A DNA stretch of 52,596 nucleotides from Gammaproteobacteria bacterium (GCA_041688005.1 JBDNJA010000036.1:1-52596), one strand, 5' to 3'. Shown: positions 8,330 to 34,392, counted from the stretch's first letter. Translations and numbers: made by a program. Notes: generated by a model not told the origin, from the letters alone.

Positions 8330-8361
8330 AAAAAAAGCCCGCACAAGTTGCGCAGGCCTTT
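8330..8361 (-). terminator. rho-independent terminator/attenuator between gap and pgk
   Basis: Minus strand GGCCTGCGCA-ACT-TGTGCGGGCT followed by a T run. Confidence 0.7.
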
Positions 8362-8482
8362 CTTGTCTGTCTTTGGGCAACTCTAAAAATGCACTTTTCC
8401 GCGATTGCTGCCGTGGCCTCGTGGCCCCTACTCTTGGCAGTTCCGTGCTCGAATCCTCATGTAGTATCGTACACTGCGGTTC

Positions 8483-8532
8483 TCGGCAGTTGCTCCATGC
8501 ATTGCTCTACCTCCTGCATATCCATGTAGTCG
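8483..8532 (-). repeat. double GGA-hairpin unit U2 nested in A1
   Basis: Minus strand CGACTACATGGATATGCAGGAGGTAGAGCAATGCATGGAGCAACTGCCGA. Cleanly absent from copy A4 (GCGCGGA|GAACCG). Confidence 0.7.
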
Positions 8533-8668
8533 TCCGCGCGGTGGTTACTCGGGTTTCGCCCTTGCCCTACGGACCATCTGTTGTCTCCGCTACGCCCCGG
8601 CTCATTACACTTATTGCCATGAATGGCATGTATGCTGTTTTGCCTCAGGGCGCCTACTGTTGGTGCAT

Positions 8669-8715
8669 CGTTACAGGGATGTAACTAATTAGAACAATGC
8701 AGGAGCAATTGTCGA
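8669..8715 (+). repeat. double GGA-hairpin unit U1 nested in A1
   Basis: C-GTTAC-AGGGAT-GTAAC-TAATT-AGA-ACAATGC-AGGA-GCAATTGT-CGA. Also at 13663-13709 (-) and 28782-28874 (+, interrupted). Confidence 0.75.
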
Positions 8716-8791
8716 GGAGCAAAAAACAGTCACGAAAAAATCACTATTTTTAGAGACGCCCTTTGTTGTAATCGTACTTAGATCTTAACTA

Positions 8792-8952
8792 GGAGCCTGT
8801 CGGACTTAGGATTAATCTACTGCGGAAAAACCATTTTGGTCCGTTTTCCCGATCCAATTCGTTGAATAGAACGACTATTCGCCTCATTCGATCAAAAAAT
8901 CTGGTTCAAAATGACGTTCCCTCGCTACGATTATCTAAGCCCGACAGGCTCC
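8792..8952. mobile_element. MITE family B copy B1 (161 bp)
   Basis: 18-bp TIR GGAGCCTGTCGGACTTAG / CTAAGCCCGACAGGCTCC, TA duplication in a CTAG context on both sides. Relatives at 16819, 28970 and 34296. Confidence 0.85.
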
Positions 8953-13614: not shown

Positions 13615-13954
13615 AGAGTGTCTGTAAAAATAGTGATTTTTTCGTGATCTGTTTTTTGCTCCTCGACAATTGCTCCTGCATTGTTCTAATTAGTTACATC
13701 CCTGTAACGATGCACCAACAGTAGGCGCCCTGAGGCAAAACAGACATACATGCCATCCATGGCAATAAGTGCAAGGAGCCGGAGCGTAGCGGAGACAACA
13801 GCCAACGGCTGGCCCGTAGGGCAAGGGCGAAGCCCGAGTGCGCGGACGACTGCATGGAGTAATTGCCGAGAACCGCAGTGTACGATACTACATGAGGATT
13901 CGAGCACGGAGCAGACGCGGCTATCGCGGAAAATTACATTTTTAGAGATACTCT
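13615..13954. mobile_element. MITE family A copy A2 (340 bp, inverted relative to A1)
   Basis: Ends AGAGTGTCTGTAAAAAT / ATTTTTAGAGATACTCT, duplication CT/CT. Long stretches are near-identical to the reverse complement of A1. Confidence 0.9.
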
Positions 13955-13972: not shown

Positions 13973-14041
13973 GGCCGAAATGAGGAGCGCTGCGACAGAC
14001 TATCTGCCAGGCTCATTCGGTTAATTTTTTAACGGCGCTCA
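13973..14041 (+). ncRNA. SAH riboswitch
   Basis: GAGGAGCGCTGCGAC...GCCAGGCTC...AACGGCGCTC: the conserved SAH aptamer core with GAGCGC/GCGCTC pseudoknot, directly upstream of ahcY. Confidence 0.92.
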
Positions 14042-14068
14042 TAAATAGATAACATGAAAGGTTTATTT

Positions 14069-15484
14069 ATGAACGCAAACGTAATCGATACAACACAGGA
14101 CTTTCACGTAGCAGACATCAGTCTTGCGCCATGGGGTCGTAAAGAAATCCGAATCGCTGAAACAGAAATGCCTGGTTTGGTTTCACTTCGCGAAAAGTAC
14201 GGTAAACAGCAACCATTGAAAGGCGCCCGCATCGCTGGCTCTTTGCACATGACCATCCAGACAGCCGTACTGATTGAAACGCTGACTGCTTTGGGTGCCG
14301 AAGTTCGTTGGGTTTCCTGTAATATTTTTTCTACTCAAGACCATGCGGCGGCGGCAATTGCCGAATCAGGTGTACCTGTCTTTGCTTTCAAAGGCGAAAC
14401 CCTGACAGAGTATTGGGACTTCACGCACCGTATGATGGATTGGCATGATGGTGGCACACCTAACATGATTCTCGACGATGGTGGCGATGCGACCATGCTG
14501 ATCATTCTTGGCAGCAAAGCCGAAAAAGACATCTCCGTTCTCGATAATCCAGGCAGTGAAGAAGAGACCGTTGTTTATGCGGCTATTCGCGAGAAGCTAT
14601 CAACCTCACCCGACTGGTATTCAAACATTCTGAAGAATATCCAGGGTGTCACCGAAGAAACAACAACAGGTGTTCATCGCCTGGTTCAAATGCAAGCTAA
14701 TGGCGAACTGCCTTTCCCTGCGATCAACGTTAACGACTCTGTCACTAAATCTAAATTTGATAACCTTTATGGTTGCCGTGAATCTTTGGTCGATGGTATC
14801 AAACGTGCAACCGACGTGATGATTGCCGGTAAAATTGCATTAGTGCTAGGCTATGGCGATGTTGGAAAAGGTTGTGCACAGTCTCTCAAAGGACTGGGTG
14901 CCACCGTATGGGTAACTGAGATAGACCCTATTTGTGCGCTACAGGCCGCGATGGAAGGTTTTCGAGTTGTAACCATGGACGAGGCTTGTAAAGAGGCCAA
15001 TATTTTTGTATCGACCACGGGCAACTTCAACGTTATTCGCCACGATCACATGGTGCAAATGAAAGATCAATCAATCGTCTGCAATATCGGCCACTTTGAC
15101 AATGAAATCGAAGTTGCGGCCATTAAAAAATACAAGTGGGAAAATATTAAGCCACAGGTCGATCATGTTATTTTCCCGAATGGCAACCGCATTATTCTAC
15201 TCGCCGAAGGCCGTCTGGTTAATTTGGGCTGCGGGACTGGACACCCGAGTTTCGTGATGTCTAATTCATTCACCAATCAAACTCTGGCGCAGATGGAGAT
15301 TTTCTGTAACCCTGGCAAGTATGGCAATGTAGTATTCACCTTGCCTAAGCGCCTGGACGAAGAAGTCGCTCGTCTGCATTTGGAAAAGGTTGGCGTCAAG
15401 TTAACTCAACTGACTGAAGACCAGGCCGGCTATATTGGCGTTAGTGTTAACGGCCCCTACAAGCCAGAGCATTACCGCTACTAA
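14069..15484 (+). CDS. ahcY: adenosylhomocysteinase
   Basis: [47 protein letters not shown] at 14069 has an AAGG RBS. Confidence 0.98.
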
Positions 15485-16804: not shown

Positions 16805-16818
16805 GCTTCGCTTCCTCA

Positions 16819-16937
16819 GGAGTCTGTCGGACTTAGGTAATCGTAGTGAGGGAAAGTCATTTTGATCCCATTTTTTGATCGGGAAATCTGGCCAAAATAG
16901 CTTTTTCGCAGAAGATTCATCCTAGGTCCGACAGTCT
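16819..16937. mobile_element. MITE family B copy B2 (internally deleted, inverted relative to B1)
   Basis: GGAGTCTGTCGGACTTAG ... CTAGGTCCGACAGTCT. Aligns to the reverse complement of B1 with the central hairpin lost between GATCG repeats; overlaps the stop of the receiver gene. Confidence 0.8.
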
Positions 16938-22895: not shown

Positions 22896-22933
22896 CCGCA
22901 ATCGCGGAAAAAGTGCATTTTTAGAGATGCCCT
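22896..22933. repeat. solo end of MITE family A
   Basis: CCGCAATCGCGGAAAAAGTGCATTTTTAGAGATGCCCT is identical to the end of copy A4; lies in the pyrR leader. Confidence 0.8.
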
Positions 22934-22999
22934 CAATAATAAATCATGCTATAAAGTAGCCCGCATTCAATACTAGGCCCTTTAGCGTCAGGAACATCC

Positions 23000-27658: not shown

Positions 27659-28693
27659 CTACAGTTGATCCGGATGAGCCGCTTTCTTCTTGGCCTCATC
27701 TTTAGTCACTAATCCTTGAGCCAACAGTCCTTTTAAATTTTGATCGAGTGTTTGCATGCCTACATTTTGTCCTGTCTGTATCGCCGAATACATTTGCGCT
27801 ACCCTATCTTCTCGGATTAAATTTCGAATCGCCGGTGTCCCGAGCATTATTTCATGCGCGGCAATTCGACCGCCGCCTATTCTTTTCATCAATGTTTGCG
27901 AGATAACTGCTTGCAATGATTCCGACAACATCGATCGAACCATGGATTTTTCTGCTGCCGGGAAAACATCGACAATTCGATCGATTGTCTTGGCAGCCGA
28001 ACTGGTATGCAAAGTCCCAAAAACCAGATGGCCTGTTTCAGCCGCCGACAATGCCAGCCGGATAGTTTCCAGATCACGCATTTCGCCGACCAGAATCGTA
28101 TCTGGATCTTCACGCAATGCCGACCTTAATGCTTCGTTAAACCCCAGCGTATCACGATGCACTTCACGTTGATTGACCAGGCATTTCTTGCTCTCGTGGA
28201 CAAATTCGATTGGATCTTCAACCGTCAGAATATGACCATATTCACTATCATTTTTGTAATCAACCATGCCTGCGAGCGTGGTCGATTTGCCCGACCCAGT
28301 TGGCCCGGTTACCAGCACAAGACCGCGAGGGTATTCGGAAATATCCTGAAAAATCTTCGGTGCTTCCAAATCTCCCAGGCTTAGAATTTTTGAAGGGATG
28401 GTTCGAAATACGCCGCCGGCACCCCGGTTATGATTAAAGGCGTTAACACGAAAACGTGCCAGTCCTGGTATTTCGAAAGAGAAATCAGTTTCCAGAAACT
28501 TCTCATAATCTTTACGTTGTTTATCACTCATAATGTCATAAATCAGATCGTATACTTGTTTATGGTCCATTTCGGGCATATTTATTCTACGAATGTCACC
28601 ATCCACACGGATTATCGGAGGTAATCCCGCCGAAAGGTGCAAATCTGAAGCGCCTTGTTTCACGCCAAAAGCGAGTAGTTGAGCTATATCCAT
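27659..28693 (-). CDS. pilT: type IV pilus retraction ATPase PilT
   Basis: ASDLHLS, GPTGSGKST, EDPIEF, LVGEMRD, AIRNLIRE; reading frame intact. Confidence 0.97.
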   Translation of the reverse strand: MDIAQLLAFGVKQGASDLHLSAGLPPIIRVDGDIRRINMPEMDHKQVYDLIYDIMSDKQRKDYEKFLETDFSFEIPGLARFRVNAFNHNRGAGGVFRTIPSKILSLGDLEAPKIFQDISEYPRGLVLVTGPTGSGKSTTLAGMVDYKNDSEYGHILTVEDPIEFVHESKKCLVNQREVHRDTLGFNEALRSALREDPDTILVGEMRDLETIRLALSAAETGHLVFGTLHTSSAAKTIDRIVDVFPAAEKSMVRSMLSESLQAVISQTLMKRIGGGRIAAHEIMLGTPAIRNLIREDRVAQMYSAIQTGQNVGMQTLDQNLKGLLAQGLVTKDEAKKKAAHPDQL

Positions 28694-28713
28694 GAATCCT
28701 CTCTTCTAATTTT

Positions 28714-28922
28714 AGGGTATCTAAAAATGCACTTTTTCCGCGATTGCAGCCGTGGCCTCGTGGTCCCTACTGTTGGTGCATCGTTACAGGGATGTAACAA
28801 ATTAGAACAATGCATTAGGGCAGGAGCCCGTAAGTAGAATAACGCAGGAGCGGTTATCGAGGAGCAATTGTCGAGGAGCAAAAAACAGATCACGAAAAAA
28901 TCACTATTTTTAGAGACGCACT
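28714..28922. mobile_element. MITE family A copy A3 (209 bp, central deletion plus nested U3 insertion)
   Basis: Ends AGGGTATCTAAAAAT / ATTTTTAGAGACGCACT, duplication TT/TT. Deletion joins the two CCTACT(C/G)TTGG repeats seen in A1. Lies 20 bp upstream of the pilT ATG. Confidence 0.88.
28815..28860 (+). repeat. double GGA-hairpin unit U3 inserted in the loop of U1
   Basis: TTA-GGGC-AGGA-GCCC-GTAAGT-AGA-ATAACGC-AGGA-GCGGTTAT-CGA splits U1 hairpin 2 at ACAATGCA|GGAGCAATTGT. Confidence 0.75.
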
Positions 28923-28969
28923 TTAGTTAACGATCAACATGACTTATACGGCATAAGTTATTATTATCT

Positions 28970-31362: not shown

Positions 31363-31568
31363 AGGGCGCCTCTAAAAATAGTGATTTTTTCGTGACTGTT
31401 TTTTGCTCCTGCAAAAACAGCATACATGCCATCCATGGCAATAAGTGCAAGGAAGTACCGCGCGGAGAACCGCAGTGTACGTTAAGTACATGAGGATCGA
31501 CCGGGCTGGCGCACCAGCACGGAGCTGACGCCGCAATCGCGGAAAAAGTGCATTTTTAGAGATGCCCT
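31363..31568. mobile_element. MITE family A copy A4 (206 bp, lacks the U modules)
   Basis: Ends AGGGCGCCTCTAAAAAT / ATTTTTAGAGATGCCCT, duplication CA/CA; sits inside a REP doublet. Confidence 0.9.
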
Positions 31569-31743: not shown

Positions 31744-34296
31744 TTGATCCAACTCGGATTACCTGTTGAAGATTGTTTAGACCCACTCAAACAATGCCTG
31801 TCTGAGCGCAATGAAGCTGTGCTCGAAGCGCCGCCGGGTGCCGGAAAAACAACTCTGGTGCCACTCGCACTATTGGACGAGGCCTGGTTGTCGGGTAAAA
31901 AAATCCTTATGCTCGAACCACGCCGAATCGCTACCAAATCAGCGGCATACCGAATGGCAAGCCTGATCAATGAGTCACCTGGCCAAACCGTTGGCTACCG
32001 TATGCGACTCGATACCAAGGTTAGCAGGCAGACCAGGATCGAAGTCATCACCGAAGGCATACTGACTCGAATGCTTCAACAAGATCCATCGCTTGAAGAT
32101 TTTGGGCTGGTAATATTTGACGAATTTCACGAGCGCAACCTGGATTCTGATCTGGCGCTGAGTTTATGCCTGAAGGGCCGAACGCTTTTTCGAGATGAGC
32201 AGTCTCCGCTAAAGATTTTGATCATGTCGGCAACGCTCGATAGTCAGGCTATCGCCCAATTATTAGATAATGCCCCCATTGTTAGCAGTGAGGGCAAGTC
32301 TTATCCTGTCGATATTAATTATGGACGTGCCAGCCAGCCAAAAGAACGCATAGTCGATCGCATGGTGACGACAATCAAGCAGGCACTGCTAGACAATCCA
32401 CAGAGTAGTTTGCTCGCTTTTTTACCCGGACAGGGAGAAATACACCGAGTTGCCGAGGCATTATCAAGCTGGTTAATCGAGAGTAAGATAAGCCATATTC
32501 ACCTTCGGCCATTATTTGGCAATCTATCGATCGACGCGCAACAGGCCGCTATCGCGCCATTGTCGGGTTATGCCAGCGGCGATCAAAAAGTAGTGATCGC
32601 GACTAATATTGCCGAAACCAGCCTGACCATTGAAGGTATTGATATTGTGGTTGACTCGGGTCTGGCTCGTGTTTCTAAATTCAATCCATCGACCGGTATG
32701 ACTGGCCTGCATACTGTGAAAATTTCGAAATCATCTAGTGTTCAACGGGCTGGACGAGCGGGTAGATTGGGGCCAGGCCAATGTTATCGGCTCTGGTCAG
32801 CCGAACAACAAAAGCAACTAGTACCGCACATCCCTGCCGAAATACTCAATGCCGACCTGGCGCCACTCGCGATGCAATTATTGCAATGGGGTGTCGATGG
32901 CCCGACCGAACTGAAATGGCTCGACCCACCACCCAGAGGCCCCTGGTTACAAGCCATCGACTTACTTGAATTACTTGGCGCCATTGAATCCAAATCGAAT
33001 AGCTGGGTACTCACGGTACATGGTCAGGCCATGGCATCGTTACCCTTGCATCCAAGGCTTGCTCACCTGCTGTTGTGTGGTGTCAATATTGGTTACTCGA
33101 AAAAAGCGGGGCTGTTAGCTAGCCTGCTATCTGATCCCGACCCTTTTAGTCAGGACAATCCAGACATTAGCCATCGACTTGATATTTTATCAGGCGATTC
33201 AAGTTGCCCACGACAACATCAGGGCTGGCTACATCGAACCCAGCAACAAGCGCAGCAGTTCGCACAACAAGTTAACAAGCTCGATCGTAAACCTAACTCA
33301 CTCACCTTCTTAGTCAAAGCGGATCAACTCGTCGGCTACCTACTCGCCTGTGCCTATCCTGATCGTATCGCGCGCGTTCGTCACTCGGGAGGCTATCAAC
33401 TCGCCAACGGTCGCAGCGCCAGTTTTTTTGGACAACCGAATTTAGCCAAAAGCCACTGGTTGGCTGTCTCTGAAGTATCGAGTATTGTGGGCGGCAAGGG
33501 AGACACCATCCGTTCCGCGACTGCACTCGACGAGGCTCTTTTTGATACCGCACTCAATCATTTGGTTAGTACCGAAGCCATTGCGCAATGGGATAAAAAA
33601 ACCAATCGCTTCATTGCCGAAAATCAAACCCGAATAAGCCAGCTCGTATTGCACAAAACCGCACTGGATCGAGTCCCGGCAGAGGCAAAAAGAAAAGCAC
33701 TGTGTCTTCATATTCAAAAACAGGGATTGGCTCTACTGCCCTGGACAGCAGAGCTGGGACAATGGTGCGCGAGAATCTCTTTGCTAGGCTCGGTAGAAAC
33801 CGATCAAGGTTGGCCGGATGTTAGCCACACCAGATTACTAGCATCGATAGAAACCTGGCTAGCGCCTTATCTGAATGACGTTAACCTATTGCAGGATTTC
33901 AAAAAGCTTAATTTAAAATACATTTTGAACGCCCTGCTACCCTACCAAAAACAACAGCAACTCAATCAACTCGCACCGCAACGACTCACCGTGCCATCTG
34001 GCTCATCTATCGCCATCAACTACCTAGAGTCGCCACCGGTGCTGGCGGTCAAACTACAGGAAATGTTTGGTTATGAACAAAGCCCTGCCGTAGTCGATGG
34101 TAAGGTGCCATTAGTCGTGCACTTACTCAGCCCGGCTGGCCGACCGCTTCAAATTACACAGGACCTCGCAGGCTTCTGGCGCTCGTCGTATCACGACGTA
34201 AAAAAGGAAATGAAAGGTCGCTATCCAAAACACCCGTGGCCTGAAGATCCGTTAGTAGCCATTGCGACACGAAAAACGAAACGTCGCTTAAGCTAG
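31744..34296 (+). CDS. hrpB: ATP-dependent RNA helicase HrpB
   Basis: APPGAGKTT, DEFHER, MSAT, ATNIAETSLT, QRAGRAGR, MKGRYPKHPWP. Confidence 0.96.
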   Translation: MIQLGLPVEDCLDPLKQCLSERNEAVLEAPPGAGKTTLVPLALLDEAWLSGKKILMLEPRRIATKSAAYRMASLINESPGQTVGYRMRLDTKVSRQTRIEVITEGILTRMLQQDPSLEDFGLVIFDEFHERNLDSDLALSLCLKGRTLFRDEQSPLKILIMSATLDSQAIAQLLDNAPIVSSEGKSYPVDINYGRASQPKERIVDRMVTTIKQALLDNPQSSLLAFLPGQGEIHRVAEALSSWLIESKISHIHLRPLFGNLSIDAQQAAIAPLSGYASGDQKVVIATNIAETSLTIEGIDIVVDSGLARVSKFNPSTGMTGLHTVKISKSSSVQRAGRAGRLGPGQCYRLWSAEQQKQLVPHIPAEILNADLAPLAMQLLQWGVDGPTELKWLDPPPRGPWLQAIDLLELLGAIESKSNSWVLTVHGQAMASLPLHPRLAHLLLCGVNIGYSKKAGLLASLLSDPDPFSQDNPDISHRLDILSGDSSCPRQHQGWLHRTQQQAQQFAQQVNKLDRKPNSLTFLVKADQLVGYLLACAYPDRIARVRHSGGYQLANGRSASFFGQPNLAKSHWLAVSEVSSIVGGKGDTIRSATALDEALFDTALNHLVSTEAIAQWDKKTNRFIAENQTRISQLVLHKTALDRVPAEAKRKALCLHIQKQGLALLPWTAELGQWCARISLLGSVETDQGWPDVSHTRLLASIETWLAPYLNDVNLLQDFKKLNLKYILNALLPYQKQQQLNQLAPQRLTVPSGSSIAINYLESPPVLAVKLQEMFGYEQSPAVVDGKVPLVVHLLSPAGRPLQITQDLAGFWRSSYHDVKKEMKGRYPKHPWPEDPLVAIATRKTKRRLS

Positions 34297-34312
34297 GAAT
34301 CTGTCGGACTTA
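34296..34312. repeat. solo TIR of MITE family B at the hrpB stop
   Basis: CTAG-GAATCTGTCGGACTTA matches the B TIR; the CTAG contains the hrpB TAG. Confidence 0.6.
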
Positions 34313-34392
34313 AGTGCCAGAAAAGAGATAATTAACATACAATACAGGTAACTATTCTCTGCGCCTACTCGCAGTAAAAATCGGAATCTATT

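Follow-up and report, generated by a model that had tools for sequence, protein, structure and literature searches.

Repeats built from hairpins with GGA in the loop are known from Gammaproteobacteria in the form of the TwoAYGGAY motif (RF01731, clan CL00106). This motif, listed by Weinberg 2010 (PMC2864571), carries two adjacent hairpins of this kind and has been proposed to bind CsrA (Gardner and Eldai 2015, PMC4333381). An extended multi-copy form is known from Pseudomonadota; up to 202 copies are present per Pseudomonas genome, and it has been suggested that they act as a multivalent Csr/Rsm sponge and spread by a mechanism resembling that of mobile elements, the link between the two being called unresolved (Li et al. 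2026, bioRxiv 10.64898/2026.09.22.753630). TwoAYGGAY is the closest described relative of the family of smaller double hairpins that is the subject of this study. The starting point is a nest of two such units, one inside the other, at positions 28781-28874 of a 52,596-nt stretch of DNA from a gammaproteobacterium (GCA_041688005.1, JBDNJA010000036.1:1-52596; hereafter the window), where both lie within a miniature inverted-repeat transposable element (MITE).

A second point of comparison comes from cyanobacteria. The small dispersed repeats (SDRs) described by Elhai and colleagues in 2008 from heterocyst-forming species and their relatives are reportedly 21-27 nt long, keep a hairpin fold by compensating changes, and are nested in themselves, in MITEs and in HIP1.

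Two classes of unit can be told apart in the family, termed U-type and M-type. U-type units are integrated exactly between the A and the GGA of the loop of another GGA hairpin, and the target is not duplicated. It is probable that the units as a whole are a class-wide family of non-autonomous mobile repeats of ~46-53 nt with two GGA hairpins, the U-type integrating at A|GGA of GGA hairpin loops. The insertion of a U-type unit recreates CGA|GGA at its right edge, and this edge is targeted again, which yields tandem and nested copies. Tandem U1-U1 copies (in a congener) and U5-U5 copies were found, showing that the regenerated CGA|GGA edge has been used again.

The nest illustrates this arrangement. 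Its carrier is a 207-nt MITE copy of family A (28715-28921, + strand), in which inverted ends of ~25 nt and a TTTA duplication on both sides can be read in the sequence. The units themselves have neither terminal inverted repeats nor a target-site duplication, the two features by which MITEs are defined. A 23-nt element termed S, which is a small covarying hairpin with a conserved tail, is inserted at 28754-28776 (+), just 5' of the TGCA of the host loop, and was delimited by the combinations of S and U1 among MITE copies. It is followed by U1, a 48-nt unit, whose left part (28781-28814, +) comprises hairpin 1 (loop AGGGAU), the TAGA linker, and the left arm and GCA of hairpin 2. After this GCA, U1 is interrupted in its second loop, at GCA|GGAGC, by the 46-nt U-type unit U3 (28815-28860, +); the right part of U1 then resumes at 28861-28874 (+) with GGAGC, the right arm and the terminal CGA. 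U1 in turn occupies the hairpin loop of the MITE, so that the nest has two levels: the right half of the split host hairpin (GGAGC and an A-run arm) lies at 28875-28888 (+), as judged against the empty copy at 31393-31445. The host hairpin that takes up U1 is itself an M-type unit. U3 is matched by the covariance model R1 at 28811-28863 with 43.6 bits, and its junction with U1 is base-exact except for an ambiguity of 1 nt (A), with no target duplication. The same nest of U3 in U1 was also found in contigs C25 and C148. C148 additionally contains, at 2726-2824 by the contig end, ~8 tandem repeats of the right-hand 14 nt of a unit (GGAGC, arm, CGA).

All units share a plan of two consecutive hairpins, the first with the loop CA-N-GGA-UG and the second with GC-AGGA-GC. 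The hairpins lie 2-3 nt from the unit ends, the two GGA triplets are 26-27 nt apart, and loop 2 is closed by invariant G-C/C-G pairs. In U-type units the linker reads TAG(A/G), the second stem is 5 bp long and contains a bulged purine, and the end is CGA. In M-type units the linker is (A/G)(A/T)(A/G)T, and the second stem is longer and often sets a T-run against an A-run; they occur in MITEs, after terminators and elsewhere, and act as landing pads.

The conservation of the fold was assessed in an alignment of 24 diverse units, using a hand-drawn structure of 6 + 7 pairs. In this alignment 91.6% of the stem cells are paired, compared with 65.5% after shuffling (none of 500 shuffles reached the observed value) and 31-44% with slid partners. 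Both sides have changed in 9 of the 13 pairs, and the loops and loop-closing pairs are (almost) invariant. Because the 24 seeds were picked among copies already showing stems, which favours such a result, a loop-only pattern was applied to other taxa, in which the two loops, their spacing and two linker letters were specified and the stems were left free. Stem 1 is paired (at least 3 further pairs) in 118 of the 132 distinct matches and stem 2 (at least 5 pairs) in 85, whereas arms dealt among the loci gave a mean of 47 (maximum 56) for stem 1 and of 15 (maximum 26) for stem 2. The left arm of stem 2 occurs in 85 different versions among these matches. The other taxa thus provide strong support, free of the selection of seeds, that the hairpin fold is kept while the stem sequence drifts. 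Within the stems there are 113 G:T wobbles to 56 A:C mismatches across taxa, and 18 to 7 in this genome, in counts of cells that are not independent. This excess favours the GGA-bearing strand as the one that folds, be it as single-stranded DNA or as RNA.

The family is abundant and widely distributed. The genome examined (2.83 Mb in 238 contigs, 45.7% G+C, 87% complete) contains the loop sequence GCAGGAGC 141 times, in contexts that show one plan with varying stems; the window has 6 copies of it, compared with 1.19 expected, and none of 100 shuffles got to 6. Counts of R1 matches are lower bounds (in this genome, 150 of 869 first-look candidates were scored). They amount to at least 114 in this genome (E<=0.01) and range from 0 to at least 72 in the 48 sampled genomes of the same genus, 34 of which have matches. 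In other families of the class, matches occur in 4 of 32 sampled genomes. Five further genomes found through loci contain at least 91, 132, 59, 14 and 44 matches, the second being that of a Methylomicrobium; four of the five are titled complete genome or chromosome. The loop-only pattern occurs in at least 118 stretches of the species-representative genome collection. Among the 80 matches listed, all come from Gammaproteobacteria or unclassed Proteobacteria, save one Domibacillus match without stems, and the carriers include Methylomicrobium, Methylotuvimicrobium, Methylobacter, Microbulbifer, Thalassolituus, Shewanella, Pseudoalteromonas, Pseudocolwellia, Psychrobium, Nitrincola, Vreelandella, Oceanimonas, Dokdonella, Tahibacter and Woeseiaceae. 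The original prediction had described three variants, U1 to U3; these are real, and they belong to a far larger family with at least 114 copies in this genome alone and members in many gammaproteobacterial orders.

A BLAST search of plasmids with one unit gave a single partial match, which is uninformative. The loop pattern occurs in 11 stretches of viral contigs, of which three score well under the model and a fourth weakly (E 0.0055). Three IMG/VR contigs (L046, L048, L049) bear well-scoring M-type units with new stems, one of them with the T-run and A-run swapped. No autonomous element emerged from this pattern and model scan of viral contigs, in which the contig genes were not looked at.

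Evidence for insertion comes from the comparison of filled and empty sites. In a set of 43 MITE copies that retain both ends and measure 70 to 389 nt, there are seven slots, each filled in some copies and empty in others. The slots are filled by M-type units in either orientation, by U2, by the 23-nt S, and by inserts of ~63 and ~15 nt. The bare form of 124-127 nt is the commonest single form (9 of the 43 copies). At the M1 hairpin all four states are found among the MITE copies: neither insert, S only, U1 only, and both.

The position of the units within their targets is recurrent. U1 lies at GCA|GGAGC in at least five host contexts, namely M1 with S, M1 without S, M8 (contigs C49 and C7, with the empty form in C5), M2 (C173, C219) and U1 itself (C166, C176, C237), and other U-type units lie at GCA|GGAUGC loops. 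Among 47 standard-length U-type matches, GGA follows in 28, and the left flank is GCA in 25 (with three further U3 copies shifted by a fixed register) and GGA in 12; other left flanks also occur, and there is no duplication. The 12-13 copies of U2 all occupy one MITE slot, GGA|GAACC. A comparable picture is seen in the complete genome of Methylomicrobium, where a different MITE-like host carries an M-type unit: across 20 loci, a U-type insert is present at GCA|GGAGC in 10, the loop is intact in 8, and 2 have other contexts. Solitary units outside MITEs are found in relatives (L035, L038, L040). When the 47 U-type matches were excised in silico, a stem of at least 4 bp was restored in 6, against 12% in the control, a comparison confounded by the presence of S between stem and loop in most U1 hosts. 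The cases that carry weight are those in which excision is clean, namely C55, C44, C221, C7, C49 and U1 inside U1.

The other inserts in these MITEs have properties of their own. Genome-wide, the S element is a hairpin whose stem exists in three covarying versions and which has a conserved tail of 11 nt; ~40 canonical copies are found among 138 loose pattern matches. It is always preceded by T and is followed by TGCA (37 copies) or CAGC (10), and it inserts independently of U1 at the same hairpin. The inserts of ~15 nt (2 copies) and ~63 nt (at least 8 copies), at base positions 53 and 98 of the MITE (for example, window 31490-31510; C103, C16, C107), are not GGA double hairpins.

The window itself holds further copies of the same MITE family. 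The empty U1 site is found in a 204-nt copy at 31364-31567 (-), where an intact M-type unit (31393-31445, -) has its GCAGGAGC loop whole at 31405-31412 (-); in the other MITE copies of the window this loop is broken by U1. A 387-nt copy at 8375-8761 (+) holds U1 at 8668-8715 (+), S at ~8642-8663 and U2 at 8483-8532 (-), the last with a model match at 8480-8534 (-) of 39.6 bits. In a copy at 13616-13953 (-), U1 lies at 13663-13710 (-), and U2 is collapsed to 23-25 nt at ~13845-13869. These three copies were delimited by sequence and model match, and sequence comparison identified a truncated remnant of the family, with one end only, at 22896-22934 (-). An S-adenosylhomocysteine (SAH) riboswitch (RF01057, 56.1 bits) is found at 13976-14047 (+), 22 nt downstream of the MITE copy at 13616-13953 and just upstream of an open reading frame at 14054-15484. 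A separate family of 20-nt repeats occurs at 8791-8810, 16818-16837 and 34295-34314, and related sequence abuts a U-type unit in C146 and C180.

Most of what the original prediction had read from these copies stands. It placed U3 exactly, at 28815-28860 in the loop of U1 with no clear duplication, and none is seen. Sequence and model match agree with its minus-strand U2 at 8483-8532 and the collapsed form near 13845-13869, and U2 is indeed missing from the MITE copy at 31364-31567. Its starts for U1 were one base late (the true starts are 8668 and 28781, and the minus-strand copy spans 13663-13710), the coordinates being otherwise correct. The prediction of fixed loops with differing but paired stems is borne out by the 24-unit alignment, with which the test on other taxa agrees. 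Its common plan extends to the M-type class, but the spacer, given as AGA, is TAG(A/G), and both spacer and CGA end are confined to the U-type. The empty sites it had proposed to look for were found (the loop at 31405-31412, C5, and the 8 Methylomicrobium loci). Independent, hairpin-based mobility without target duplication is supported by the filled and empty sites in at least five host contexts and in Methylomicrobium, and insertion into other elements and into the unit itself by U1 in M1, M8 and M2 hosts and in U1, and by U3 in U1.

How these units would move can be outlined. The GGA-bearing strand would travel as single-stranded nucleic acid, and a trans-acting enzyme would read the GGA hairpin both as the end of the element and as the target. 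It is a guess that such an enzyme might be an HUH-type, loop-nicking single-strand nuclease. Once transcribed, a unit would present two loop sites to one CsrA dimer, which may be a side effect or a secondary benefit.

A number of observations limit the case for autonomous movement of the units or weigh against it. The orthologous empty sites concern the whole MITE and not the nested units, and the comparisons of filled and empty sites are between paralogous copies. At the locus of the nest, the MITE is absent from the relatives G034 and G025, and in G027 there is a 22-nt relic (L234, ~2310-2335) with the outermost letters of both MITE ends only, which is either an internal deletion or an excision footprint. 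A contig from an RNA library of a relative, produced in another study, likewise spans the locus without the MITE and has a relic of 22-25 nt there. By these comparisons, the insertion of the host MITE is recent. In the two best DNA sequencing runs the contigs are covered 40-75 times more deeply over the MITE than over its flanks, which reflects the repeat only, and joints that skip U3 were not assignable to this locus. Since units ride in MITEs, as does U2 in its single slot, many copies derive from few insertions, and independent events are far fewer than copies; at single slots, deletion may have occurred in place of insertion. The insertion sites of M-type units have no clear consensus beyond the junction T. 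No replication-strand bias, in the form of a switch by chromosome quarter, is seen among the matches listed for three complete genomes, although this test is uninformative because the units ride in MITEs. Single sequences fold only modestly better than their shuffled versions (z from -1.4 to -2.9), and folding of the opposite strand is as good or better. Finally, no protein able to move the units was found, and no hairpin pair flanking a gene was encountered, in the course of work that included no systematic search for one and in drafts of a kind in which repeats are often unassembled.

A different emphasis is placed by the explanation that the units are primarily RNA modules for binding CsrA/RsmA, which is possible but unlikely. 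The double hairpin would then clamp one dimer, arrays and nests would act as sponges, copies near genes would bring them under CsrA control, the loops would be held constant by selection for binding, and mobility would only spread the module. The CsrA site obtained by in vitro selection (SELEX) is RUACARGGAUGU, with GGA in a hairpin loop and paired flanks, and one dimer bridges sites 10 to 63 nt apart (Pourciau, PMC7652899). Hairpin 1 of U1 agrees with 11 of these 12 letters, including ACA..GGA..GU, and its flanks are paired, so that the likeness to the consensus noted in the original prediction holds; the spacing of 26-27 nt between GGA triplets is within the bridging range. Paired GGA hairpins also match the description of CsrA motifs in Rfam as GGA hairpins that generally come in pairs (PMC4383904). 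The matches listed come almost solely from Gammaproteobacteria, a class with known Csr/Rsm sponge RNAs, and the related TwoAYGGAY has been proposed as a CsrA binder and sponge. CsrA binding by the unit loops is therefore plausible on the basis of their letters.

The distribution of csrA and the arrangement of the copies bear on the same explanation. The original prediction had counted a lack of csrA in the genome against a regulatory role. The gene was not found in this 87%-complete assembly, but it is present in 52 of 60 congeners, among them all 28 of high quality, so that the objection does not hold for the genus. In one RNA library, some contigs contain sequence of the MITE family, which may be DNA carry-over. 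Units occur in both orientations within one MITE (M2 and U2 are opposite to M1 and U1), which speaks against a simple regulatory role. Three of five inspected tandem arrays start right after a terminator-like hairpin and T-run, and none of the five has a site resembling a GacA/UvrY box (up to 3 mismatches, in the 700-900 nt shown). CsrA binding leaves unexplained the exact insertion at A|GGA and the invariant G-C/C-G closing pairs of loop 2. In Tahibacter, Dokdonella and another metagenome-assembled genome (L092, L096, L144), M-type units stand in tandem arrays, one every 48-49 nt, that start right after a GC-rich hairpin and T-run resembling an intrinsic terminator.

It is tempting to speculate that binding and movement are two sides of one system. 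The unit would be a class-wide transposable element of ~50 nt with nothing in it but a module to which a single CsrA dimer binds, and an enzyme that cuts GGA loops at A|GGA would paste modules into modules; Csr sponges would grow and the regulon would be rewired, with TwoAYGGAY elements as larger relatives. This is a tentative proposal and rather unlikely to be correct.

Doubtful is the proposal that the units are derivatives of IS200/IS605 insertion sequences akin to palindrome-associated transposable elements (PATEs), or partners of REP-associated tyrosine transposases (RAYTs) akin to repetitive extragenic palindromes (REPs). A Y1 HUH transposase would then cut single-stranded DNA by the hairpins and paste the unit 3' of a short target. 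Such an origin would fit the lack of duplication, the two subterminal hairpins, the constant CGA right end and the recurrent GCA left flank, and REPs inside target palindromes are on record (Di Nocera 2013, PMC3733652). REPs are palindromes of 20-40 nt that bear an unpaired tag, GTAG or CGTC, at one end. The linker 5' of hairpin 2 reads (G/T)TAG(A/G), near the GTAG tag of REPs, but it is mostly TTAG and not GTAG, and M-type linkers read (A/G)(A/T)(A/G)T. The hairpins of IS608 are much farther from the element ends than the 2-3 nt seen in the units.

The Y1 genes themselves do not follow the units. Y1_Tnp genes are present in this genome, with 14 matches, and in 58 of 61 genomes of the genus. 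However, all 10 of the Y1 loci inspected here are without flanking GGA hairpins, and no RAYT gene flanked by units is among them; both this genome and Pseudocolwellia have IS200 copies whose ends are GC-rich hairpins of no relation to those of the units and whose insertions lie at TTAT-like sites. Unit-free congeners have 0 to 4 Y1 matches and congeners with at least 20 units have 1 to 8, while G045 has 11 units and no Y1 match. IS200/Y1 was rejected as the mover on account of the unflanked loci, the unrelated ends and Y1 counts that do not track unit counts. The PATE-like, Y1/HUH mechanism favoured by the original prediction is thus not supported, Y1 genes being widespread in the genus, unit-free genomes included. 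The IS200-type Y1 genes of this genome are mostly broken, with frame changes, stops or contig-end fragments (C70, C231, C46, C183). The genome of Pseudocolwellia contains 35 Y1_Tnp matches. Its unit is carried by a MITE of ~365 nt, and IS200-like elements of ~565 nt lie inside the unit-bearing MITE (once) or 8-44 nt from it (twice) at L228-L230, where a rough estimate gives ~0.2 expected. We take this proximity as a target preference for hairpin-rich DNA, not as mobilisation.

Distinctly improbable, in our view, is spread through an RNA copy, in which loop cleavage and ligation would be followed by reverse transcription and recombination. Elhai and colleagues are said to have proposed spread through an RNA copy for very small cyanobacterial repeats. 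The excess of G:T over A:C in the stems is in line with it, in that one strand matters, as are loops of the type found in RNA-protein motifs, and nesting in themselves and in MITEs is a resemblance to SDRs, of which SDR5 inserts between nucleotides 3 and 4 of HIP1 (Elhai 2015, PMC4390886). Against this, the units have no poly-A or other mark of a retro-element, and their junctions are base-exact. Least probable is that nothing moved and that an ancestral long MITE lost pieces between short repeats, recombination at shared 8-nt loops mimicking filled and empty sites: collapsed U2 forms that are deletions between repeated 8-mers, chimeric units (U1 hairpin 1 with U3 hairpin 2), the 22-nt relic in G027 and the amplified 14-nt tail in C148 speak for such a course, but a given unit occupies an identical place in the loops of unrelated host hairpins and of a different host element from another order, solitary units exist outside MITEs, one hairpin shows S and U1 in all four combinations, and the bare MITE is the commonest form.

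If the units are mobile repeats that integrate into GGA loops, they would be among the smallest mobile elements known. Their high copy number in cultured Gammaproteobacteria with complete genomes would make the movement of sub-100-nt repeats testable at the bench, unlike that of the cyanobacterial SDRs. An insertion point inside the GGA loop would also, for the first time, connect the mobility of GGA-hairpin repeats concretely with their loop motif, the very link called unresolved in the 2026 preprint on TwoAYGGAY. Should CsrA bind to these loops, the sites of a global post-transcriptional regulator could be dispersed and multiplied by transposition.

The units can be set against several known systems. 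With REPs, bacterial interspersed mosaic elements (BIMEs) and REP doublets (REPINs) they share the form of short intergenic hairpin repeats in high copy, in clusters and tandem arrays, a tag-like motif 5' of a hairpin and, with some REPs, a location inside target palindromes. They differ in that their two unlike hairpins stand head to tail, an arrangement rare among REPs (Di Nocera 2013, PMC3733652), and in that their loops are invariant and are themselves the target. As in PATEs and other IS200/IS605 derivatives, their hairpins are subterminal, their right end is fixed and the target is not duplicated; they differ in that their ends do not resemble those of the resident IS200 and their hairpins lie only 2-3 nt from the ends. 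The Csr/Rsm sponges (CsrB, CsrC, RsmX/Y/Z) have repeated GGA hairpin loops and a gammaproteobacterial range in common with the units, which differ from them in having no Rfam match, no GacA-box-like site at the five arrays (in other taxa), and copies that number in the hundreds, are dispersed in either orientation and show insertion behaviour.

The comparison with SDRs was made by description, not by sequence. By what is reported of them, SDRs are the repeats that behave most like the units, which likewise nest in themselves and in MITEs, insert at an exact point and show compensation in their stems. The units are, however, 46-53 nt long, have two GGA hairpins and belong to Gammaproteobacteria, and only the 23-nt S element has the size of an SDR.

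The nearest neighbour is TwoAYGGAY, which resembles the units in having two adjacent GGA-loop hairpins (the loop of unit hairpin 1 being AYGGAY), in its gammaproteobacterial range, in many copies that vary by strain, and in the CsrA/Rsm binding and mobile-like spread proposed for it. The first loop is AUGGAU or AGGGAU in the units; loop 2 is GC-AGGA-GC (C-AGGA-G in all 24 seeds), no basal stem encloses the two hairpins, and a length of 46-53 nt compares with a model of 168 positions. RF01731 (gathering threshold 43 bits) gave no match at E<=10 on window positions 8350-8800 and 28690-28940, and none in this genome or in Methylomicrobium. In Thalassolituus, a match to RF01731 (44.8 bits) adjoins a unit; of the 15 matches in that genome, 10 exceed the cut-off. 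Rfam 15 has no match to the units, and literature searches found no published description of the double-GGA-hairpin unit; neither 'nested' nor 'CsrA' occurs in the main text of a review of MITEs in prokaryotes from 2024. The novelty claimed in the original prediction is weakened in that TwoAYGGAY elements have already been proposed as Csr/Rsm sponges with mobile-like spread. The main text of the TwoAYGGAY preprint (10.64898/2026.09.22.753630), its supplements aside, makes no mention of the GCAGGAGC loop, of nesting or of loop insertion. What is new here is that the GGA loop itself is the insertion target; in other respects the units belong with what is known, being GGA-hairpin repeats akin to TwoAYGGAY that behave like SDRs.

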